From Candidatus Methanoperedens sp. (lineage in GTDB: Archaea; Halobacteriota; Methanosarcinia; Methanosarcinales; Methanoperedenaceae), in contig JBGQBI010000003.1 of the NCBI GenBank assembly GCA_041494705.1, forward strand, positions 150,001 to 182,000: a DNA stretch of 32,000 bases, given 5' to 3'. Position numbers and translations under genes: made by a program. The notes under the pieces were generated by a model that ran no database searches, had not been told where the DNA came from, and saw only the letters and a list, made by a program, of their open reading frames with translations. Below are positions 1,659 to 30,246 of the stretch, piece after piece (position 1 is the first letter of the stretch; each line of letters begins with the position of its first letter).

Positions 1659-5091
<3,433 letters not shown>

Positions 5092-5146
5092 ATATTCCCA
5101 TAGTCGCTTATGTAAAAGCAAATGTTCACCGTTTCATCTTCCGTTA

Positions 5147-6193
5147 TTAATCAGCGCCCCACCATCTGTTCGGGAACTTCTTTTTGATTATTTCATCCCC
5201 TTCGCAAAGGGACTCTAATCCATACGCCCTCATATCCGCATCAACCATTATTTTAACCAGTTCTTTGAATTTAATTCCAGGTTTCCATTTTAGTTTTTTT
5301 ATAGCCTTGCTTGAATCTGCAATCAATTCTTCAACTTCGGTAGGTCTGTAATATCTTGGATCTATCTTTATATATTCATCCTGGTCAAGACCAGCATAAG
5401 AAAACGCCTCATCTACGAATTCCCTGACCGAGTGCGCCTCTCCGGTTCCTATAACAAAGTCCTCAGGGTTTTCATTTTGAAGCATTTTCCACATGAATGC
5501 AACATATTCCGGCGCATAACCCCAGTCCCTTCTGGCATCAAGGTTGCCCAGAAAAAGGCTATCCTGTTTTTTTGCTAATATTGCTGCAATAGCCCTTGTT
5601 ATTTTCCTTGTTACAAATGTTCCACCCCTTCGCGGTGATTCATGGTTAAACAATATCCCATTGCATGCAAAAATCCCATATCCATCCCGGTAATTTGCAG
5701 CCATCCAGTAGGCATAAACCTTGGCTGCTGCGTAGGGACTTCGGGGAATGAAAGGAGTTGATTCGTTTTGCGGCGGTAGCGAGGCTCCAAACATTTCGCT
5801 GCTGGAAGCCTGGTAAAATTTTATGTTATTCCCGCTCCTCCTTATCGCTTCCAGAATCCGTGTCGTGCCAAGAGCAGTGATATTGCCGGTGTATTCGGGA
5901 GCATCAAAGCTGACCCTGACATGACTTTGCGCGCCTAAATGATACACTTCATCGGGTTTTATGTTATAAATAACATTTGAAATTTGTTCAGAATCGGAAA
6001 GGTCGCCGTAGTACATAAAGAGCCTCGCATCGGGCTTGTGCGGGTCGACATAAATATGATCAATCCTGGAAGTGTTGAAAGTGCTCGCTCTTCTTATAAT
6101 CCCGTGTACTTCATAACCTTTTGAGAGTAAAAACTCCGCAAGATATGAGCCATCCTGTCCCGTTATTCCGGTTATCAGCGCTTTTTTAGTCAT
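5147..6193 (-). CDS. gmd: GDP-mannose 4,6-dehydratase
   Basis: [38 protein letters not shown] and [12 protein letters not shown] are classic Gmd motifs. The track ORF starts at TTG 6229; ATG 6193 (MTKKALITG) is the likely start. Confidence 0.92.
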
Positions 6194-6225
6194 TTTAATT
6201 TGCCCTTTTATCTTATGCCCACAGG

Positions 6226-7251
6226 TCAATTATTCCATCTGCTTCTATCCTCTTCTGCTGTATGGATCATATTCCTCACCGCGCCGAATCCATATACATT
6301 CAGCGTTATCCAGCACGCCGGTATATGAAACCACCACGCTCTATCCTGTTTCTGCCAGTAACCTCTCAAAAGTTGGGACACCAGCGGAAGAATAATTATC
6401 GTATAAACAATGAATTTCAACAGCTTCATTTTGCCAAGGCTTCCCCAGGGATACTTCCTGAGCTTCTGCTCTTTATAATACGCATAGTCCTTAATCCTTC
6501 GCCTCTGCTTTTTTATGAAAGTAAAAACATCCCCGGAGAAAAGATGCACAATTCCCACCTTGACTTTCGCAAACTTATTCTTTCTCTGTGTTATCAGTTC
6601 ATAAACAATGTCGATGTCAAACAGGTAATCACCTATAGAACAGCCCATCAGCGCGTCCCGCCTTACAAGGAACCCATTAGCGCCTATCGTTGGCAGCTTC
6701 TTATCATCAAGTTCGATCTTAAGATAGTTCCCCTTATCTTCCTGGATCACAGGCATCTCAGTCCATTTACCTGTTACCATGCACATCCGGTCATAATTCC
6801 CAAGGAATAAACACAGCGGGTCGTTCATCCCCAGCATGGCGCAGTATCGCGTGATATACCCATCCTCCTTTCGATAAGTGTAATAAAGCGGCTCAGTCCC
6901 TGCGATCTCCCTGTCCTGGAATGGTTCAGTCATGCGGGAAAGCCAGTCCCTTGAAGGAAGGATATTGTCCGAATCTATGAGGGCGATGATCTCATTTGTT
7001 GCATGTTTCACACCTGCGGCTTTGCCTGCTTCACCTGTTTTAAGAGGATTTGGATAGATATTATCCGTGTATTTTCGGGCTATTTCAAGTGTGCTGTCGG
7101 TTGAGCCGCCGTCTGCGATAATAATTTCGATATCTCCCCGGTAGTCCTGGTTTTTGATGGACTCAAGGCAATCTGCCAGTGTTTTGGCAGAGTTATACGT
7201 GGGGGTTATGATGGAGATAGAAGGGTTCCTGTCATATAAGCTATGCGCCAC
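6226..7251 (-). CDS. GT2 family glycosyltransferase with C-terminal TM segments
   Basis: [23 protein letters not shown] and the IDSDN (DxD) motif. GTG start at 7251. C-terminal hydrophobic helices ([35 protein letters not shown]). Confidence 0.85.
6940..6979. repeat. 40-nt direct repeat, copy A (inside the intact GT2 gene)
   Basis: aagccaGtcccttgaaggaaggatattgtcCgaatctatg matches 7823-7862 at 38 of 40 positions. Confidence 0.85.
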
Positions 7252-7267
7252 CTTTTGTTCGATGCTT

Positions 7268-7522
7268 TCATGCCTCCTGCATGATTTTCTCGCGCACCCA
7301 TGAATTAATCAACTTGTCATAGCTCTGTCTTTTCTTCTGTGCGATTTTCTTAAGCTTTTCTGAGAGGTCATGGTCTATTTTCAATAGTATCCTGCGCTGC
7401 TCAAGGCATACCTCAATTTCAACCGGCTCGGTATCCTCTAAATGATCGGCAAAGCTGTGGGTATCCCAGTAGTCTGCCGCTTCTTCTAAGGATCTAAAGT
7501 CGGGGATTTTTAATTTTGTCAT
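7268..7522 (-). CDS. brnA: BrnA-type (CopG/RHH-like) antitoxin
   Basis: 84 aa. The FRSLEEAADYWDTHSFADHLED N-terminal part and the C-terminal IDHDLSEKLKKIAQKKRQSYDKLINSWVREKI follow the BrnA pattern. Its ATG overlaps the brnT stop (ATGA at 7519-7522). Confidence 0.75.
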   Translation of the reverse strand: MTKLKIPDFRSLEEAADYWDTHSFADHLEDTEPVEIEVCLEQRRILLKIDHDLSEKLKKIAQKKRQSYDKLINSWVREKIMQEA

Positions 7523-7824
7523 AATCTTGAATACAATGATTTTTCCTTACTATCCATTTCTCTGGCACTTATTATTAATGCTTCGTTGTTTCTCTTGGAT
7601 ATAAATACGATAAACAACAGGCGATCCCCATCTGTTCTTCCAAGAGCATAATATATATTCTCTTTAACATAATTTCCTCTGGGTCCACGCCGAAACTTTG
7701 GTTTATTCTTGAAAACTTCCTCTACTTCTGCTATCGTAACATTGTGCTTGTTGCGTATTTTCTCAATAATACTATCCAGCCAGATTATTTCAATGATTTT
7801 TATTCTTATCACCTGTATGCACAA
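7519..7824 (-). CDS. brnT: BrnT (DUF497) family toxin
   Basis: IIWLDSIIEKIRNKHNVTIAEVEEVF...ALGRTDGDRLLFIVFISKRNNEALIISAREMDSKEKSLY matches the BrnT pattern (W-D, KH-V, E-F, G-R-L, ISAR, E-K-x-Y). The start is uncertain: TTG 7824 or GTG 7812. Confidence 0.75.
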   Translation of the reverse strand: MCIQVIRIKIIEIIWLDSIIEKIRNKHNVTIAEVEEVFKNKPKFRRGPRGNYVKENIYYALGRTDGDRLLFIVFISKRNNEALIISAREMDSKEKSLYSRL

Positions 7825-7862
7825 GCCAATCCCTTGAAGGAAGGATATTGTCAGAATCTATG
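7823..7862. repeat. 40-nt direct repeat, copy B (inside the GT2 remnant, abutting brnT)
   Basis: aagccaAtcccttgaaggaaggatattgtcAgaatctatg matches 6940-6979 at 38 of 40 positions. The copies are 883 nt apart in the same orientation. Confidence 0.85.
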
Positions 7863-7945
7863 TCCCGGCGCTTAATGCTTTCAATGCACGAAGCTATTCT
7901 CTTCTCTTCATTGTAGGCTGGAATGGTTACAGGTATGCCGGGAAA
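7823..7945 (-). pseudogene. GT2 glycosyltransferase gene remnant (N-terminal 25 codons fused to the [13 protein letters not shown] segment, no start codon, internal deletion)
   Basis: My own translation gives FPGIPVTIPAYNEEKRIASCIESIKRRD|[13 protein letters not shown]. It then runs into brnT and stops at 7790. It aligns to residues ~10-35 and ~92-104 of the intact GT2 at 6226-7251, with about 57 codons missing between them. Confidence 0.7.
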
Positions 7946-7947
7946 AG

Positions 7948-8838
7948 TCAAAATATCATCTCACTTAAACCGCGCTTCAAATCATATTCTGGCGCCCATC
8001 CCAGCTGGCTTTTTGTCTTCGAAATATCTGCCGTGAATCTATCCACTTCACCATCTCTTGGCTGCATAATTTTATGTTTTGAAGTAGAGTGCATCATCCC
8101 GATTATGATTTCTGCTAACTCCTGCAATGTTGTTGATGTTCCAGATCCAACATTAAAAGTTTCATTTTTATTATAATTCAAAGATTTTATAAATGCTTCG
8201 GCAACATCTTTGATATAAACAAAATCTATAATCTTATCATTGCCAAATATTGTTAAATCCTCTTCTTTTTTTGCTTTTTCAATGAAAATGGGAATAACTC
8301 TCCCTGTATCTCCATAACCATATATATTACTCAATCTCAAAATGACATATTCAAGCCCATAACTATTTGAGTACGATCTGATTATCATCTCTCCACTGAT
8401 TTTGGACGCTGCGTAAGGATTCTCTGGTTTAAGAGGATGCGCAAGATCCACAGGTAAATAATCCGCTGATCCGTATACTTCTCTAGATGATGAAAATATC
8501 AATTTTTTATCATATTTTGCGCTATATCTTGCTACTTTTTCAGTTCCTTCTATATTGTATTTTAACGTAAGATCTGGATTTTTAATAGAGGTCATCACCT
8601 GAGAAACAGCAGCAAGATGAAGGACTATATCACTTTCTTTAACCAATCTTTTAATTAATGCGTCACTGGTAACATCCCCGATTATTATTTTTAAATTATC
8701 CTGATTATCCAGTCTTTCTTCATAACCTCTATAGAGATTATCCAGCACATTAATTTCGTAATCCAGAGGGAGTATTCTTTTAGCAAGATAGCTTCCAACG
8801 AACCCTAATCCACCGGTTATTAATATTTTTTCGCTCAT
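7948..8838 (-). CDS. NAD-dependent nucleotide-sugar epimerase/dehydratase (extended SDR)
   Basis: ILITGGLGFVGSYL (GxxGxxG), SSSREVYG and YAASK (YxxxK). Substrate cannot be assigned from sequence. Confidence 0.85.
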   Translation of the reverse strand: MSEKILITGGLGFVGSYLAKRILPLDYEINVLDNLYRGYEERLDNQDNLKIIIGDVTSDALIKRLVKESDIVLHLAAVSQVMTSIKNPDLTLKYNIEGTEKVARYSAKYDKKLIFSSSREVYGSADYLPVDLAHPLKPENPYAASKISGEMIIRSYSNSYGLEYVILRLSNIYGYGDTGRVIPIFIEKAKKEEDLTIFGNDKIIDFVYIKDVAEAFIKSLNYNKNETFNVGSGTSTTLQELAEIIIGMMHSTSKHKIMQPRDGEVDRFTADISKTKSQLGWAPEYDLKRGLSEMIF

Positions 8839-8899
8839 AGCAATGGAACCACCCTCTAAATTTCAGTTTATGTTTGAACAGATACCACGGACACCTTTC

Positions 8900-10363
8900 T
8901 CAAGATTCGCACTTCTCCTTATTCGAGAAATCAGTAAGATGCCCTGTTACTGACTTCACGCCTCTTTTTATAAACCTCAGGTCATCCGTATTTCTGATAG
9001 ATAGCAGTCTTCTAAGCACGTAGCCTGGCGTAAGGAATACTCTGTATAGCTCCTGTGTCAACTCCTTGATTTCCTGCGCTGTCATAGGACATCTCATAAC
9101 AGGCTCCCGCATATCATACCTGTCCCAGTCTTCAGTCACAAGCCAGCCATTTTCCTTGCATTCCCTGAAAAGAGGAGTTCCGGGATAGGGGATTACAATC
9201 GTCGCCTGCAGCGTCTCAGCCCAGCCTTTTTTGAAAATCTCATGGGCAAGTTTTACCGTACGCAGAGCATCAGTTTTCATTTCCCATGGGTAGCCCATCA
9301 TAACCGTAAGATGCGGGTCAAGCCCGGCTTTTTTAGCCATCCTGCAGGCGTTGGGGATGTCCTCAACTTTCGTGCCCTTGTTGATTCTATCAAGCGTATT
9401 CTGGTTTGCCGACTCAACGCCGTAAAGTATGAACCTGAATCCTGCCTTCGCCATGAGGTTGTATTCCTCCTGATCAAGGGCATTCACGCGCATATTACAG
9501 TGTACATTTACTTTTTTATTGTATCCTCTTTCGATCATGCCTGTGCAAAACTCACGTAGCCATTTTCCTACCGGAAAGGTTCCGGTATCGTCCATTATCT
9601 CCTTCACTTTGTATCTCTCAATAAGCATACCTATCTCATCAAGTAATTTTTCCGGGGTCCTTGTCCTGAAGGACGGGTAGGTAGTAGTCCATGAACAGAA
9701 TGTGCATTTTGCATGCCAGCAGTCACGCCCCACCATTGTGTAGGTACCGGGTGTTCTTTTATAATTGCCGTTGTTCGCGCTGTATAGCGTCCATTTCGTT
9801 AAATCCCGGTCTATGAACGGTAGCTTGTTCAGGTCGTGGTTAAGCTTGAATAGCCCTGTATTCTTTATGTTTCCGTTTTGTCTATACCATATTCCGGGTT
9901 CCAATGCCTCTCCGAGGGTGATATTATTTATCAGATTCAACAACAGAAAATCATAATCTCCGCCTGTTATAATAAAATCGACTTCCGAGTTTTCCATCGA
10001 CTCCTGCGGAAGGGCAGTCACATGGTCACCCATGAGGACAATCTTTGCGTCAGGCATTAAGCTTTTCAGGTCATTCACAATATCCCAGTGTTTTTTGACC
10101 ACCGGTGTTTTTGTTTCTATGGCAATTATATCGGGTTGTTGTCTTTCAATATCCCTGCGCCACTGTTCATAAGTCTTGTTTTCAGCGATTCCATCGTCCC
10201 AAAGAACCTCATAACCATTTACTTTCAGCAAAGTGGCTGCGTAAGCAGGAACCATAGGGTAAATATAAGTGGGATTATTAAACCACTGGAACTGCCTGTT
10301 TTGAGCCAGCAGCGGCGTTCCTTTCGGGCTTTCAAGTGGCGGATAGGATATAGCGATATTCAT
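8900..10363 (-). CDS. B12-binding-domain radical SAM enzyme with CX4CX2C cluster motif
   Basis: The track ORF extends to 10420 over the upstream gene. ATG 10363 (MNIAISYPPLESPKG) lies 1 nt after the upstream TAA. It has a B12-domain-like N-terminal half (IVLMGDHVTALP..DFIITGGDYDF). The motif RDCWHAKCTFC was checked codon by codon at 9695-9721. Confidence 0.85.
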   Translation of the reverse strand: MNIAISYPPLESPKGTPLLAQNRQFQWFNNPTYIYPMVPAYAATLLKVNGYEVLWDDGIAENKTYEQWRRDIERQQPDIIAIETKTPVVKKHWDIVNDLKSLMPDAKIVLMGDHVTALPQESMENSEVDFIITGGDYDFLLLNLINNITLGEALEPGIWYRQNGNIKNTGLFKLNHDLNKLPFIDRDLTKWTLYSANNGNYKRTPGTYTMVGRDCWHAKCTFCSWTTTYPSFRTRTPEKLLDEIGMLIERYKVKEIMDDTGTFPVGKWLREFCTGMIERGYNKKVNVHCNMRVNALDQEEYNLMAKAGFRFILYGVESANQNTLDRINKGTKVEDIPNACRMAKKAGLDPHLTVMMGYPWEMKTDALRTVKLAHEIFKKGWAETLQATIVIPYPGTPLFRECKENGWLVTEDWDRYDMREPVMRCPMTAQEIKELTQELYRVFLTPGYVLRRLLSIRNTDDLRFIKRGVKSVTGHLTDFSNKEKCES

Positions 10364-17500: not shown

Positions 17501-18943
17501 TCATCCTCGGGTTTTGTGTGTTACTTCCTTAATTATTAATAAACATTTGGACTTAATGCGCTCACTCAGCATAAACAGTATAATGAAATATAGAACTCCC
17601 CCTGTCAAAACCGTTATAATCAAATTCCTGACCATTGCCTGCGGAAACATCTTTGAAAACACAAATACTATCAATCCCATCAACGCCGCTGAAAAGATTT
17701 CATAAGCAATGTCCTTAAAAGGGATTTTAATGTCCAGCATCCTGCAAACAACCTTCGTATTCCACACAAATGAGACAAGTATCGTAACCATAGTACCCAT
17801 AGCAGCTCCAACAAATCCGAAAAAATATACAAGCAGCAGTATCCCGAAAACATTTAAGATTGTGGTAAAAACATTGATTTTAAAAACAACATCCGGTAAA
17901 TCCATTCCTTCCAGTGTCCTCACAGATATCATCTGCATGGATTGAAACATGCGGGCAAGCATCAGGATTACCAGCACAAGATAACCCGCCTCAAAATCTT
18001 TTCCATAGATTGCCCCCAGCAAATTCTCCGAGATGACAAGCGTGCCAAAAAAAGCGGGAATAACCAGAAGCGGAGAGTAAACCAGACTTTCTGAAAAAAT
18101 GCTTGCGATTTCCTGTTTCTGGTTCCCGGATGAAAAATCGCTTATCTTCGGGTATATCGAACTTGAAATCGCCTGGCTGAGGAGCAAAAAAACGGCAGAA
18201 AGCCCCCACGCAACACCGTATATTCCCGCCTGTTGTTGAGTCAGGAACAACCCTATGATTACAATGCCGATCCATTCATATAAATAACCTCCGACAGCAT
18301 TGCCTGAAGAGAATTTTGAAAAAGCCAGAAGGCTATTAAAATGTGATTTTTTAGGTACCTTGAGTCCCGTATCTATAAGCCTTGAACCGATAAACAGCGA
18401 AATAAGTACGCCGATGCCCAGTCCTATGACCAGCCCGAAGATTTCAAATCCGAGCAGGATTAAAAATGACTGGAAAAGGACACGCAGGAATTGCTGGGCA
18501 AGATCAAATGCGCCCCCAATATCCACTTTCTGCTCGCCGTGAAGTATCTCCCTTATAATATCGGAAAATTGCGTTAACCCGAGTATCAGAATCAAGTAAT
18601 AAGAAAGTTCAGCGCCAATATAGCGATATACCTGACCGCGGAAAACCAATATTGCAAGTGCGCAGAGCGCAAAAACACCCAGCCTGAGCATCAGGGACGC
18701 CGTTGCAATCTCTGACTGCTGGACGCCCTCGCTGATTCTCTTGATTGTGGCTGCCTGCAGCCCCATGTTCGTGATAAGATTGAATACCGTGAGGACGGAC
18801 ATGAACAGGAAATAGATACCGAGTGTCTGTGCCCCAAGTTTGCGGGAAAAATAAACCATCCCGATAAAACTTATGATGGCTGTAATAACGCTGAAAATAA
18901 ACCATTTTAGGCTTGTCTTTGCAAGGCTCATTTCACTATTCAT
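17501..18943 (-). CDS. MOP/Wzx-type flippase (second copy, different sequence)
   Basis: 480 aa, about 12-14 TM helices with a MATE/polysaccharide-biosynthesis-protein-like layout. The start is ATG 18943 (8-nt overlap with the upstream gene) or ATG 18931. Confidence 0.75.
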   Translation of the reverse strand: MNSEMSLAKTSLKWFIFSVITAIISFIGMVYFSRKLGAQTLGIYFLFMSVLTVFNLITNMGLQAATIKRISEGVQQSEIATASLMLRLGVFALCALAILVFRGQVYRYIGAELSYYLILILGLTQFSDIIREILHGEQKVDIGGAFDLAQQFLRVLFQSFLILLGFEIFGLVIGLGIGVLISLFIGSRLIDTGLKVPKKSHFNSLLAFSKFSSGNAVGGYLYEWIGIVIIGLFLTQQQAGIYGVAWGLSAVFLLLSQAISSSIYPKISDFSSGNQKQEIASIFSESLVYSPLLVIPAFFGTLVISENLLGAIYGKDFEAGYLVLVILMLARMFQSMQMISVRTLEGMDLPDVVFKINVFTTILNVFGILLLVYFFGFVGAAMGTMVTILVSFVWNTKVVCRMLDIKIPFKDIAYEIFSAALMGLIVFVFSKMFPQAMVRNLIITVLTGGVLYFIILFMLSERIKSKCLLIIKEVTHKTRG

Positions 18944-20027
18944 GCCTCATTGCAGATGATATTTCCGGTTTTGTTTTTCCTATGAAAATAGCGGTATCGA
19001 ATTTCTTAGCCTGCGCCTCGCACGCATGCCTGTATCTATCAGGGTCTGCTGATATTTTTTTAATAGCTTTCATAATATCCGGAACCTCCGGTTTCACGAG
19101 CAAACCTGTCTCTCCATGTACTATACTTTCCAGGTATCCCCCTTCCCTGACCGCCACCACCGGTTTACCTGAAGCCATTGCCTCAACAGGAGTTAACCCG
19201 AAATCCTCATCCTGGGCGGTGGTTACCAGTCCTTTGCACTGTGCGTACAGCTTGAGCAGATCATCCTCGCTCACCATGCCGAGAAGCTCGACATTAGAAG
19301 GGACGTCTGACAGGAATTTAAGGTTCTTTTCAGCATGATCTCCCCTGCTGTATCCGCCTACGATTTTCAGTTTTTCATCCGGCAGGTTCCTGAAAGCCTC
19401 AAATTGCAGCCATATTCTCTTCTCAGGATACATCCTGTTGACCGACAGCCAGTAATCTTTATTTTTTTCAAAATAATAACTTGTGGTTTGCACAGGCGGA
19501 TACACGACCACCGCGTCCCTTTTATAGTATTTCTTAATTCTTTTTTGAGTATTCTGACTATTGGTGATTATCCTGTTAACATTTTTAATCGAGCACCTGT
19601 CAAACCAGCTATGCAGCTCAATCCACGCTTTCGCTATAATCCGCTGCCACAGTTTCTCCTGGCTATTAATTACCTGGTTCTTTAAGTCGTAGAACGCCCT
19701 CACGGGTGTGTGGCAGTAATACAGATTCGGCTTATGCCGCCATGCAGCATAATGCGCCCAGTTGCCTGAAAAAATAAAAAAATCATATTTCTTTGAAAAA
19801 TCGCACATGGCAAATTTCAAAGAAGCTGAAATCTGCTTTAAAGGTGGAATTTTAATTGTTTCGCCAAGGCTTATAATCCTCACATCCTCGAATCCCATCT
19901 TCCTGACAGAATCCTCATCAACGTCCGTGGTTATCACATCCGCTCCAAGCTCCCTTGCAAGCGTAAGCACCAGCTTCTCACCGCCGCCTATTGCGCCAAT
20001 GTAGTCGTGGAAGATTGCGATTTTCAT
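18936..20027 (-). CDS. GT4 family glycosyltransferase
   Basis: MKIAIFHDYIGAIGGGEKLVLTLAREL N-terminus and the EDFGLTPVEAMASGKPVVA (EX7E) motif. Confidence 0.85.
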   Translation of the reverse strand: MKIAIFHDYIGAIGGGEKLVLTLARELGADVITTDVDEDSVRKMGFEDVRIISLGETIKIPPLKQISASLKFAMCDFSKKYDFFIFSGNWAHYAAWRHKPNLYYCHTPVRAFYDLKNQVINSQEKLWQRIIAKAWIELHSWFDRCSIKNVNRIITNSQNTQKRIKKYYKRDAVVVYPPVQTTSYYFEKNKDYWLSVNRMYPEKRIWLQFEAFRNLPDEKLKIVGGYSRGDHAEKNLKFLSDVPSNVELLGMVSEDDLLKLYAQCKGLVTTAQDEDFGLTPVEAMASGKPVVAVREGGYLESIVHGETGLLVKPEVPDIMKAIKKISADPDRYRHACEAQAKKFDTAIFIGKTKPEISSAMRHE

Positions 20028-20075
20028 ACGTTATCATTTATACAGGCATATATCTTGTACTTGTATGGTCAGCCA

Positions 20076-20494
20076 TCAATTACTTTTTATAAGCGTCTCG
20101 ATTTCCCGGATGAACTTTTCCGCTCTTGACAGCGCATTTTCAGCTTCCGTCCTCGATATCGTCCCCACCGAACCATAGACTGCTGTATGCCTTTTTCTTC
20201 GCATACGATCAAACATTATCACATCATCTTCTTTCAAAAAGAGCTTTGCAAATCTAATAGCTGATACATGTCCGGCATCTGAGGAAGGACGGTACCCTTT
20301 TGAAAACATAAGAGCTCTCACAGATTGCAGTATTGAATTGTATGCAATTGAAAACCCCAGTCGCAATTATCATCCATAATATTCTTTGCAGCTTTCAAAT
20401 CACGTTTTGCCAGATCAAGTGCATCGCTGACTTTTTTCTCGTCTATCGGCAGCCTCTTTATAATGTCGGCTCTTTCAAGTTCATCAATATCCAC
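20076..20494 (-). pseudogene. HEPN-domain toxin gene, split by a 1-nt frameshift (or homopolymer sequencing error)
   Basis: The N-terminal frame runs from GTG 20494 (VDIDELERADIIKRLPIDEKKVSDALDLAKRDLKAAKNIMDDNCDWGF) to a stop at 20318. The C-terminal frame is the 96-aa track ORF (..GFSIAYNSILQSVRALMFSKG..DRMRRKRHTAVYG, Rx4-6H-like). One extra T in the G4T4 run (plus-strand 20351-20358) would restore DWGFSIAYNS. Confidence 0.6.
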
Positions 20495-21053
20495 TTAATT
20501 CACCTATCAGCATCACTTTTTTATCCTTAAGTACATTCTGTACAAATGGATCTTTGTTCCTTATCCTCTCATTCAATTCATCGGGTGTAAAAAGAACATA
20601 ATTTATCTCGCGTGAGAGCTGCGTTTCAAGTTTTTCTATGCAGCGTATAAGTTCATTTTCATGCACATGCCCGATTATGAAGAGGTCTATATCGCTTCTG
20701 CCTCCTGCGCTTCCTCTGGCAAAAGACCCATAGATGAATGCGGCTTTAATCTCACCCAGTTTCAACAGATTGTCGGTTAGAATCTTCCCCACAGCTTCGG
20801 TCTTGAGTATGATACCTGTCAATTCTGCATAGATAGGCATGTTTTTATTCACTACGTAATATCTTAAGTTGCCTTTTCTTACACTTGAGAGCAATCCAAT
20901 TTCTTCAAGATTCTTAAGCTCTCTCCTTATAGCATTGGTGTTCTCATCTGTCCTTCGTGCAATCTCCCTGACATACATCTCAGTCTCTGGATTGAGAAGA
21001 AAGAGTGTCAGCAGCTTTACTCTTGTCTTAGACGTGAATAATTTTTCAAGCAT
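20484..21053 (-). CDS. wHTH (ArsR-like) fused to minimal nucleotidyltransferase (MNT-type antitoxin partner of HEPN)
   Basis: The N-terminal part (TRVKLLTLFLLNPETEMYVREIARRTDENTNAIRRELKNLEEIGLL) looks like a winged helix. The NTase motif is YGSFARGSAGGRSDIDLFI (GSx10-ish DxD). The track start is TTG 21062; the first ATG is at 21053. Confidence 0.8.
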   Translation of the reverse strand: MLEKLFTSKTRVKLLTLFLLNPETEMYVREIARRTDENTNAIRRELKNLEEIGLLSSVRKGNLRYYVVNKNMPIYAELTGIILKTEAVGKILTDNLLKLGEIKAAFIYGSFARGSAGGRSDIDLFIIGHVHENELIRCIEKLETQLSREINYVLFTPDELNERIRNKDPFVQNVLKDKKVMLIGELSGY

Positions 21054-21139
21054 TGAGTACAAATTGTATTCAATCGTATAAAAATATTACTCAATGATAA
21101 ACCATAGTTTCAATCCAGTGCGAAGAAGCCAGAGAAACG

Positions 21140-21265
21140 TGTTGTCACCGCCGAGAGCGGCGCCACCGTGGGGTCTGGGGCTTGCCCCAGCGCGTGATTG
21201 TTGTAGTAATTTTAGTGTTTCACTAACGGTTCTTGGCGAAAGCCCCTGCTATCAGCGCCACCCCC
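21140..21265. other. GC-rich, hairpin-dense intergenic island (candidate structured RNA; strand unknown)
   Basis: Hairpins: cgccg-agag-cggcg (21149-21162), ctgggg-cttg-ccccag (21175-21190), ttagtg-ttt-cactaa (21212-21226) and tggcg...cgcca (21234-21260, containing ggc-gaaa-gcc). Direct repeat gcgccacc at 21160-21167 and 21255-21262. Confidence 0.25.
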
Positions 21266-21303
21266 CTTATCATCTACGTTAACGTATCAATTCAGAAATG
21301 GTA

Positions 21304-21648
21304 CTATAATGCTCCGATAATTGCTTGCTCAGGCAAGCCGGAATATTTTTTAACTATATTAATAAAATTTTGTTCCTGTAAAAATGAAGAGATAGAGAAC
21401 GCATCGTCAAAATCCCCAATTTCTTCCATGTCCTTCGCAATCAGACGTGTCTGGACTTTTGTAATACGAAGATGAGAAAGGACGTTCATGTAGTAGCCGA
21501 GAGGTTTTGCCCTGTCCGAAGAAATGTTCTTGACTGCACCGCATACTACGCAGTAAGGATGGGATTTCAATCCTTTCGCATGTCCCCTGAATTCGTAAGG
21601 AAGCCAAACTTTCTGGATATTCCCGCAGATTTTGTGGTTACAAGACAT
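21304..21648 (-). CDS. Hypothetical small protein with N-terminal Cys4 (zinc-ribbon-like) motif
   Basis: 114 aa, ATG start preceded by GGGGA. Cys3/Cys8 (CNHKIC) and Cys33/Cys36 (CVVC). No family recognised. Confidence 0.5.
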   Translation of the reverse strand: MSCNHKICGNIQKVWLPYEFRGHAKGLKSHPYCVVCGAVKNISSDRAKPLGYYMNVLSHLRITKVQTRLIAKDMEEIGDFDDAFSISSFLQEQNFINIVKKYSGLPEQAIIGAL

Positions 21649-30103: not shown

Positions 30104-30139
30104 AAACCAGCTGGAATCCAAAAATAATGAGTATAATGA

Positions 30140-30246
30140 AAACCTTTAAGAAAGGTTTATCAAACGACGGGTATGGTGCGCCATACCCGGACACGCCCTC
30201 CCGAGGCGTGACTCGGGACGTCATAAAGGGGCGTAACCCTTTATGA
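30140..30246 (+). promoter_or_regulatory. Hairpin-dense leader upstream of the dehydrogenase gene; the last stem sequesters the start codon
   Basis: H1 30140-30158 (8 bp). H2 30168-30189 (9 bp, cgggtatgg/ccatacccg). H3a 30192-30210 (6 bp) and H3b 30199-30218 (7 bp) overlap and exclude each other. H4 30221-30246 (10 bp, tcataaaggg/ccctttatga) includes ATG 30243-30245. Confidence 0.35.

Follow-up and report, generated by a model that had tools for sequence, protein, structure and literature searches.

A probable compacted recombination scar at a toxin–antitoxin cassette hotspot in a surface-glycan operon of a Methanoperedens-type archaeon

How does a toxin–antitoxin (TA) gene pair come to lie inside a surface-glycan operon, between two copies of the same short piece of a glycosyltransferase gene? 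The question is raised by a 32,000-nucleotide (nt) stretch of Candidatus Methanoperedens sp. DNA (assembly GCA_041494705.1, contig JBGQBI010000003.1, positions 150,001 to 182,000; hereafter the window), in which brnT and brnA, a gene pair of the BrnT/BrnA type (brnTA), separate the relic of a family 2 glycosyltransferase (GT2) gene from an intact GT2 gene. The genome that holds the window (G000) is archaeal, 2.06 Mb in size and 99.5% complete; other G-numbers denote genomes of the genus or its relatives, and L122, L123 and L138 are metagenome contigs. Two glycosyltransferase types have to be kept apart: GT2-A, our name for the older type, is intact in G012 (328 amino acids, aa), and GT2-B, our name for the resident type, is intact in the window (341 aa). 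The reading that we favour, with a probability of about 0.6, takes the feature for a recombination scar, by now compacted, at a hotspot for cassettes within a surface-glycan operon of a Methanoperedens-type archaeon.

A first interpretation made from the letters alone (the sequence-only reading) had reported the 40-nt repeat on which the question turns, and its description stands: copy A, within intact GT2-B, and copy B, upstream of brnT (Table 1), are direct repeats identical at 38 of 40 positions and 883 nt apart. At three or fewer mismatches the pattern occurs at these two sites only and in none of 100 shuffles; no other direct repeat of at least 20 nt was found in 5000–9500, where the next longest measures 19 nt. 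Both copies encode the same 13-residue peptide, each in the frame of its own gene on the minus strand, and the 883-nt unit indeed consists of brnT, brnA, the 16-nt spacer and GT2 codons 1–91. An assembly duplication, named at the outset as what would overturn the observation, is contradicted by independent identical assemblies: a single 2,065,243-nt Joint Genome Institute (JGI) contig is 100% identical to the window, as is a 2,135-nt Logan contig that covers both copies (the word length of the Logan index is 31 letters, and the longest exact run common to the repeat copies is 23 nt). The exact BrnA and epimerase proteins occur on eight public contigs, with the same neighbours on all.

The gene fragment that contains copy B is composite. 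Copy B matches GT2-A's own DxD-coding DNA at 27 of 40 positions only and, given its far closer match to copy A, is a piece of GT2-B and not the DxD region of GT2-A; the same 40 nt recur with zero to two mismatches (95–100% identity) in other GT2-B copies or stubs (G020, L026, L028, L029, L030 and L032). Fused to it in frame is the 5' stump of GT2-A, in which 25 of 30 residues match the GT2-A of G012, with 85% DNA identity over window 7870–7971, as compared to 12 of 28 against GT2-B types. The upstream part of the fragment is thus a paralogous GT2 N-terminus, as had been proposed, and the notion of a recombination scar is likewise supported. The fragment was also thought to have no start codon; TTG at 7951–7949, overlapping the epimerase stop as in the intact G012 orthologue, provides one. 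The gap of about 57 codons exists, but the count comes to 54 on GT2-A or 61 on GT2-B.

G012 shows what the stump was once part of. Its gene order is a radical S-adenosylmethionine (radical-SAM) gene, the 328-aa GT2-A (start MTFPGISVIIPAYNEEKRIASCIGSIKQQD) and a DegT-type gene, with neither a TA pair nor a GDP-mannose 4,6-dehydratase (GMD) gene, and its GT2-A holds the same position as the stump, with the same TTGA coupling to the epimerase. Of 49 genus genomes searched, one (G012) has GT2-A, and none was found to carry it next to GT2-B. The epimerase gene of G012 (L035:4603–4783, G012:C205) is itself internally deleted, its first ~114 nt (with a 1-nt deletion) being joined to its last ~24 nt at GGTTA; sitting between the radical-SAM gene and GT2-A, this remnant makes a second scar at the same hotspot. 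Since the ends of the epimerase gene are kept before GT2-A, the ancestral A-type order is radical-SAM, epimerase, GT2-A, of which G000 keeps the left part.

Everything to the right of the cassette is of the other type. The intact GT2 gene encodes DSD at residues 94–96, is full length and is colinear with its orthologues, as befits a family 2 glycosyltransferase; it is 86% identical in amino acids to that of G020, 88% to L041 and 80% to both L042 and G062. Compared separately, residues 10–91 and 105–341 are 91 and 88% identical to L041, 79 and 80% to L042, and 44 and 28% to the GT2-A of G012, respectively, so the exchange of old and new types that had been expected between N- and C-terminal halves was not found. 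By this measure, the intact gene is B-type over its whole length and no in-frame A/B swap made it; no A-type C-terminus is left in G000. The genes 3' of GT2-B are likewise closest to L042/G062 (GMD 92%, DegT 88%, next gene 89%, versus at most 70% for G012), where the order is radical-SAM, Zn-ribbon p119, GT2-B, GMD and DegT, with no TA pair. A TA-free arrangement was therefore found in relatives for both types (A in G012; B in L042, G062 and G020), and G000 is mosaic, being A-type at the left edge and B-type in its body. A finer patchwork is visible inside GT2-B: identity between G000 and G020 is 50–63% in nt 1–120 and 83–98% thereafter, and that to a G021 copy is 71–81% in nt 150–330 and then 91–98%; in these alignments the 5' third reads as a mosaic between lineages.

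The join between copy B and brnT suggests an order of events. Copy B lies 11 nt upstream of the brnT start, spanning −11 to −50. A GT2-B piece, homologous but more decayed, precedes brnT in G056:C121, L123, L122 and L138 too, and in all five loci it joins the same brnT leader (...GGGAT..(N)..CAGGTGAT); in the four other loci it belongs to longer GT2-B 5' stubs. As the junction recurs in G056, L122, L123 and L138, it predates its joining to the GT2-A stump. Shared rare changes suggest a single joining of brnTA to a GT2-B stub, at codon 104, after which the unit was passed around. The AT-rich core (GACAATATCC; GATTATATCC in L122) of the 40–50 nt kept before brnT may have been co-opted as the cassette promoter region; a promoter region at −11 to −50, where an archaeal promoter would lie, would explain both the retention of the piece and its common left edge.

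The TA pair is a unit in its own right. The homology of the G000 cassette to copies in other contexts (86% to G009:C45, 84% to G021:C182, 74% to G005) is bounded at 7266 and 7818, i.e., it sets in 4–5 nt downstream of copy B and runs ~2 nt beyond the brnA stop. BrnT matches PF04365 over residues 24–94 with 44.6 bits (cut-off 34.5), and an independent annotation makes the 97-aa call too; BrnA matches PF12441 with 45.6 bits (cut-off 28), and brnA starts 4 nt before the brnT stop, a 4-nt overlap. Conserved as a unit in at least ten genus genomes at 73–86% DNA identity, the pair is, by sequence, a regular BrnT/BrnA member. Its neighbours in G009, as judged from their sequences, are a universal-stress-protein-like gene on one side and a putative acetyl-CoA synthetase gene on the other. 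Flanking repeats are absent around brnTA outside GT2-B loci (G009, G005); therefore the cassette alone makes no target duplications. The end of the G000 BrnA (QEA-stop, then AAGCAT) is common only to GT2-B-associated copies, in which brnA ends in QEA-stop or QES-stop followed by AAGCAT or AAGTTT and which also have the tail TGAAAGCAT in common; brnTA copies outside GT2-B loci have a longer BrnA end, QEASN-stop, QEAAN-stop or similar. In a maximum-likelihood tree, the GT2-B-associated copies group with G000 (weak support, 36/48). As the G000 pair brings along hardly any upstream DNA and lacks a TATA-like box, it is probably co-transcribed with the operon; strong TATA-like boxes are present ~35–48 nt upstream of other brnTA copies, in non-homologous flanks.

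The stub-plus-cassette unit recurs on a much larger scale in relatives, where TA cassettes travel with GT2 5' pieces, as the sequence-only reading had supposed of a TA pair and a partial glycosyltransferase gene. GT2-B fragments number at least 17 in G056, at least 17 in G021 and about eight in G028; G020 and G062 have the full gene only. In G021:C207, three GT2-B 5' fragments (residues ~3–148) within 5.3 kb are each followed by a different small cassette. The order in G056:C121 is stub, PIN pair, U repeat, stub, piece plus brnTA, U repeat, where U is a ~650-nt repeat upstream of GT2-B in the relatives' arrays that holds a fragment like the p119 end and AT-rich promoter-like boxes; via a 141-nt identical overlap, this contig runs on into C240, with stub, UPF0175+PIN, U and stub. 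In L041, the radical-SAM gene is directly followed by a stub (residues 111–181; 96% identity to the full gene), UPF0175+PIN and the full gene, the stub end and the cassette being the same as in G056:C240. L122 carries stub, brnTA and U, and then a copy of GT2-B that was read at least as far as residue 259. Several stubs on single contigs are 80–93% alike. The cassettes in the arrays comprise PIN, HEPN+MNT, UPF0175+PIN, ParE, MqsA-like, DUF4258, DUF5678 with an aspartyl protease, SLFN/AlbA_2 and brnTA. Stubs end at codons ~100, 104, 143–149, 181 and 208, differently for different cassettes, and these variable ends argue against a single attachment (att) site; some end types are common to several units, and therefore units were copied. 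Units also recur in more than one genome, next to different neighbours. No tRNA genes or Rfam elements were found in the arrays. The tyrosine recombinase domain (PF00589) has four matches in G000, all more than 50 kb from the feature and none in the window, and was not seen on the array contigs read.

Several further observations concern these arrays. In G021:C182 (L033:1700–6200), five direct copies of the 3' end of the UDP-N-acetylglucosamine (UDP-GlcNAc) 2-epimerase gene wecB (PF02350 positions 239–346 of 347) alternate with HicB-like, UPF0175-containing and brnTA cassettes, a second locus of the same design. An ~80-nt hairpin-rich insert was considered as an array recombination site and rejected, as it is a dispersed repeat resembling miniature inverted-repeat transposable elements (MITEs), with dozens of copies in G000. 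This MITE-like repeat (AAAAACTTTGAGAAAGTTTTATCAAA ... TATACGTCCTAAAGGGGCGTAACCCTTTATG) has conserved ends and a middle hairpin that varies with compensatory changes; it occurs at window 30139–30245 and at L026:1043–1122, L027:1365–1600 and L101:~2240–2420, and copies lie within GT2-B stubs of G021 and G056, immediately behind codon 107 and at a TATG target. A ~37-nt repeat, CACAGAGTTCTCAGAGAACACAGAGAA, lies in the U region of the arrays (L101:1795–1835) and at ~14 places in G000, e.g., C6:12340–12376. L041 (MFNH01000067.1), whose copy of the archaeal glycan cluster is 88% identical and includes both a GT2-B stub and a TA pair, is labelled Candidatus Levybacteria RBG_16_35_11 and is probably a mis-binned Methanoperedens-type contig. 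In L122 (4171–5949), a gene for a 592-aa DDE transposase (PF01609), the sole transposase seen beside any array, follows a GT2-B copy apparently cut short past ~residue 290.

The proposed history would then run as follows. The 5' part of GT2-B, often with its upstream region, would be repeated as stubs that alternate with TA cassettes ahead of the functional copy of the gene. A unit of this kind, made up of a stub that stops at codon 104 and then brnT–brnA, would have arisen once and be common to several genomes; in G000 it would have come to lie between an A-type left flank (epimerase and 30 GT2-A codons) and a B-type right flank (GT2-B, GMD and DegT). Trimming of both sides, by deletions that used short homology or none, would have reduced the stub to 40 nt and removed the ~650-nt U repeat, which is present in G056, L122 and L041 and absent in G000, so that brnA would end 16 nt before the new GTG of GT2-B. 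At the right join, the cassette tail AAGCAT meets the native GT2-B leader (AT)CGAACAAA / ATCGAACAAA at a 2-nt overlap, 10–12 nt before that GTG, and microhomology is found at the joins of G056 and G012 and on the right side of G000. Genome sizes in the genus range from 2.0 to 4.1 Mb; the position of G000 at the small end fits a deletion history and proves nothing.

No dedicated recombinase would be needed for these steps. Homologous recombination between stubs or flanking glycan genes, combined with microhomology or illegitimate joins, would suffice: the stubs would provide homology for unequal crossover and cassette exchange between genomes, and the illegitimate joins would make new stub ends. 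A published account, which fits the proposal, holds that homologous recombination in the genes on either side is how TA islets spread (PMC13617665). The G000 brnTA would now act as an addiction module placed in line in the operon, poor in promoter sequence but intact by appearance, with transcription probably reaching it from the epimerase gene. A crossover of one 40-nt copy with the other would take out the antitoxin gene together with GT2-B codons 1–91, leaving an in-frame gutted fusion; such a deletion should be counter-selected, which would help the scar to persist.

Four other explanations have to be set against this history. The sequence-only reading had brnTA and a new GT2 5' end cross with the resident GT2 gene at the DxD stretch in a single event, producing an in-frame chimera and leaving the old 5' end as a scar. 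Copies in the same orientation with the same in-frame peptide, and a unit between them of exactly the TA pair and codons 1–91, are what such an event would leave, and an identity step near nt 300, in the mosaic 5' third, indicates that 5'-end exchange among B-type alleles seems to occur. The halves test contradicts it, however: the C-terminal 237 residues are 80–88% identical to B-type and 28% to GT2-A, so both halves are B-type. A crossover at the DxD stretch, where the GT2-A DNA matches the repeat at the 27 positions given above, would also have kept codons 31–84/91, which the stump lacks, and the stub–brnT junction is common to four other loci; the crossover was not borne out, and the single event is very improbable. 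Chance similarity or assembly duplication has only the general risk in metagenome-derived genomes in its favour and is negligible in view of the shuffles, the identical independent assemblies and the same architecture in other genomes.

Two models involve a moving cassette. An ~883-nt circle (brnTA, GT2-B leader and codons 1–104), released by stub recombination in another array, could have entered the resident GT2-B by a single Campbell-type crossover, with a later deletion to the GT2-A stump. The succession of 40 nt, TA pair, GT2-B codons 1–91 and 40 nt is an exact circular permutation of such a unit, direct-repeat arrays can shed such circles, and the 95–96% identity of stub to full copy within a genome (here and in L041) fits a local or recent duplication. 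This route is nevertheless unlikely: it needs an extra deletion of the displaced copy's codons 1–91 and all the way back to GT2-A codon 30, and the old junction in four other loci shows that the stub–brnT join was not created in G000. Alternatively, the 40-nt sequence, or part of it, could be the att site for a recombinase acting in trans, which would move promoter-less TA cassettes into and out of GT2-B loci, as an integron does. On its left, the piece stops within 1–2 nt of the same base in G000 and G056/L123, despite different upstream partners; it is retained in each of the five GT2-B-associated brnTA units; the cassettes are compact, homology setting in no more than 10 nt before the start codon; and the arrays look like TA-rich integron arrays. 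Yet no tyrosine recombinase match is found in the window, within ~50 kb or on the array contigs read, the joins of other cassettes to their stubs fall at codons 143–149, 181 and 208, brnTA in G009, G005, G041 and others has neither piece nor flanking repeat, the G056 junction has a microhomology explanation of its own, and the 40 nt would be conserved anyway because they encode the catalytic DxD region. We regard a site-specific system as quite unlikely.

The scar-at-a-hotspot reading has weaknesses of its own. The coincidence of the left edges despite different partners is not predicted by a random-deletion model; for G056 an imperfect microhomology (ATGAACGACCCGCTGT vs ATCATCGCCCTCAT) offers a reason, and none was found that would explain the left edge of G000. 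The G000 piece is preserved at 38 of 40 positions versus roughly 28–32 of 40 elsewhere, which needs gene conversion by the neighbour or a younger origin. It carries the neighbour's allele CCTTCA (Pro-Ser), where the other four, roughly 70–80% identical to functional sequence, have CCTGAG (Pro-Glu); the difference could come from gene conversion by the nearby gene or from a separate history, a distinction that is marginal on 40 nt. The G000 brnTA is 86% identical to that of G009, outside GT2-B loci, versus 81–83% to the GT2-B-associated clade, with which, as said, it groups with weak support. The G021 and G056 arrays lie on short, branching contigs of metagenome-assembled genomes. Finally, the eight contigs with the same proteins include no intermediate of the G000 lineage and have a uniform layout.

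The features of the locus are collected in Table 1. Every gene of the region is on the minus strand, according to the list of open reading frames (ORFs) and the Pfam search, and the order of transcription is epimerase, 53-aa ORF, brnT, brnA, 16-nt spacer, GT2-B and GMD. The left flank, of A-type, is the epimerase gene, whose stop shares bases with the TTG start of the stump (TTGA); GMD is the downstream partner of GT2-B in the B-type module. The 53-aa composite ORF stops 20 nt into brnT and probably does not make a functional protein; L138 carries the same fusion (a 22-residue stretch). Elsewhere in the window (18936–21648, minus strand), a Zn-ribbon p119 paralogue (114 aa, 21648–21304) lies directly upstream of a winged helix-turn-helix (wHTH)-nucleotidyltransferase/HEPN pair (21062–20076), which is followed by a family 4 glycosyltransferase (GT4) gene (20027–18936); the layout of Zn-ribbon, TA pair and glycosyltransferase gene recurs there as at the relatives' GT2-B. 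Stub repeats were not found at 18936–21648.

Table 1. Features of the brnTA–glycosyltransferase locus in window coordinates, and left extent of the GT2-B piece that precedes brnT in five loci
Feature	Position	Strand	Basis
GDP-mannose 4,6-dehydratase (GMD)	5147..6229	-	PF16363
Intact GT2-B glycosyltransferase, 341 aa	6226..7251	-	PF00535, 87 bits
Repeat copy A, codons 92-104 (DxD region) of intact GT2-B	6940..6979	-	direct-repeat search
16-nt spacer with right-hand junction	7252..7267	-	alignment to GT2-B upstream regions of L122, G056, L041
Discrete brnTA cassette	7266..7818	-	homology to copies in unrelated contexts
brnA, CopG/ribbon-helix-helix (RHH)-type antitoxin gene, 84 aa	7268..7522	-	PF12441
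brnT, toxin gene of ribonuclease type, 97 aa from GTG 7812	7519..7812	-	PF04365
Composite ORF, 53 aa: GT2-A stump, GT2-B piece and 10 brnT-leader codons	7790..7951	-	ORF list
Repeat copy B, relic of GT2-B 5' stub (codons 92-104)	7823..7862	-	38/40 to copy A
GT2-A 5' stump, native TTG start and codons 1-30 (MTFPGIPVTIPAYNEEKRIASCIESIKRRD)	7863..7951	-	85% DNA identity to G012, weak PF00535 match
NAD-dependent sugar epimerase/dehydratase, 296 aa	7948..8838	-	Pfam PF01370/PF16363
Left extent of piece, G000	codon 92
Left extent of piece, G056 and L123	codon 93, fused there to codon 146 of a different stub
Left extent of piece, L138	codon 81 or further left (at least to 81)
Left extent of piece, L122	codon 73 or further left (at least to 73)

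The locus can be compared with several known systems. BrnT/BrnA is a type II TA system first described in Brucella abortus. The pair in the window follows that pattern as a toxin-first two-gene operon with a 4-nt overlap and both domains above the Pfam cut-offs; it differs in being archaeal, known from sequence and in line in a glycan operon, with no upstream region of its own conserved between copies. Replacement-type flexible genomic islands and mosaic O-antigen, capsule and glycosylation loci carry gene remnants at their joins. Here, too, a hypervariable surface-glycan cluster is exchanged by homologous recombination in conserved flanks, and remnants mark the joins (in G000 the stump of GT2-A, in G012 that of the epimerase gene), but the join holds in addition a piece duplicated from the incoming gene, along with a TA cassette, and has expanded in relatives to ~20 stubs.

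Chromosomal integrons and superintegrons are cassette arrays stabilised by TA cassettes, and they resemble the relatives' loci as long, TA-rich arrays of small, mostly promoter-less cassettes with a repeated separator, in which the TA genes would oppose deletion. Here, by contrast, no IntI-type integrase match lies nearby and the repeat is a 0.4–1.2-kb host-gene fragment with variable ends. No attC-like site was recognised and no Rfam match was obtained, no dedicated attC model having been applied, and the cassettes are bounded by stubs or U repeats. Some integrative elements duplicate the end of their target gene, e.g., dusA-specific islands, e14 and phage 21 in icd, and tRNA-gene islands. 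There, as here, the duplicated gene end keeps the target intact and serial insertions yield tandem stubs; an integrase of their own and a fixed att core belong to those elements, whereas neither is seen here, where ends fall at codons 100–208.

An architectural parallel is found among type VI secretion system (T6SS) effector–immunity, Rhs and contact-dependent growth inhibition (CDI) loci, in which sequential displacement produces "orphan" arrays (Vibrio cholerae, PMC5361080; polymorphic toxin systems, PMC3482391). In both cases repeated recombination at a conserved segment stacks cassettes, with truncated copies beside each displaced cassette, and the arrays of the relatives likewise present tandem truncated copies, each with a different cassette, beside one full-length gene. 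The repeated segment here is the 5' end of a glycosyltransferase gene and not a toxin 3' end, and the cargo consists of self-contained TA pairs and not of toxin tips with immunity genes; nor are the stubs known to provide functional variants of the glycosyltransferase. The TA islets of Photorhabdus are similar as small TA-only insertions without mobile-element genes that rely on flank recombination; they are bacterial, and the part of the account at hand describes no host-gene stubs duplicated beside the cassettes (PMC13617665). In the literature on Methanoperedens and TA systems, and on TA genes together with gene remnants and glycosyltransferases, no description of this architecture was found.

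The G000 locus alone is an ordinary but neatly resolved scar. It shows a glycan operon being rebuilt: an old transferase was lost, a new transferase and sugar-nucleotide genes were gained, and a selfish TA pair was locked in. The wider interest lies in the GT2-B 5' ends and wecB 3' ends that act as seams between TA cassettes in methane-oxidising archaea. Tentatively, and as a possibility rather than an expectation, duplicated glycan-gene ends may serve as portable homology that builds and reshuffles arrays of TA and defence cassettes without a recombinase, in Methanoperedens-type archaea and perhaps in surface-glycan loci far beyond them. If so, the arrays would work as an addiction ratchet, in which unequal crossover adds units while loss removes an antitoxin and is punished, so that arrays grow to ~20 stubs; the stubs would also feed 5'-end variation into the working glycosyltransferase by allele shuffling. 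The combination of stub, TA pair and gene is a simple model that is testable in tractable archaea. Should the design prove general and recombinase-free, it would help to explain both the crowding of TA systems in surface loci and the diversification of surface-glycan genes.

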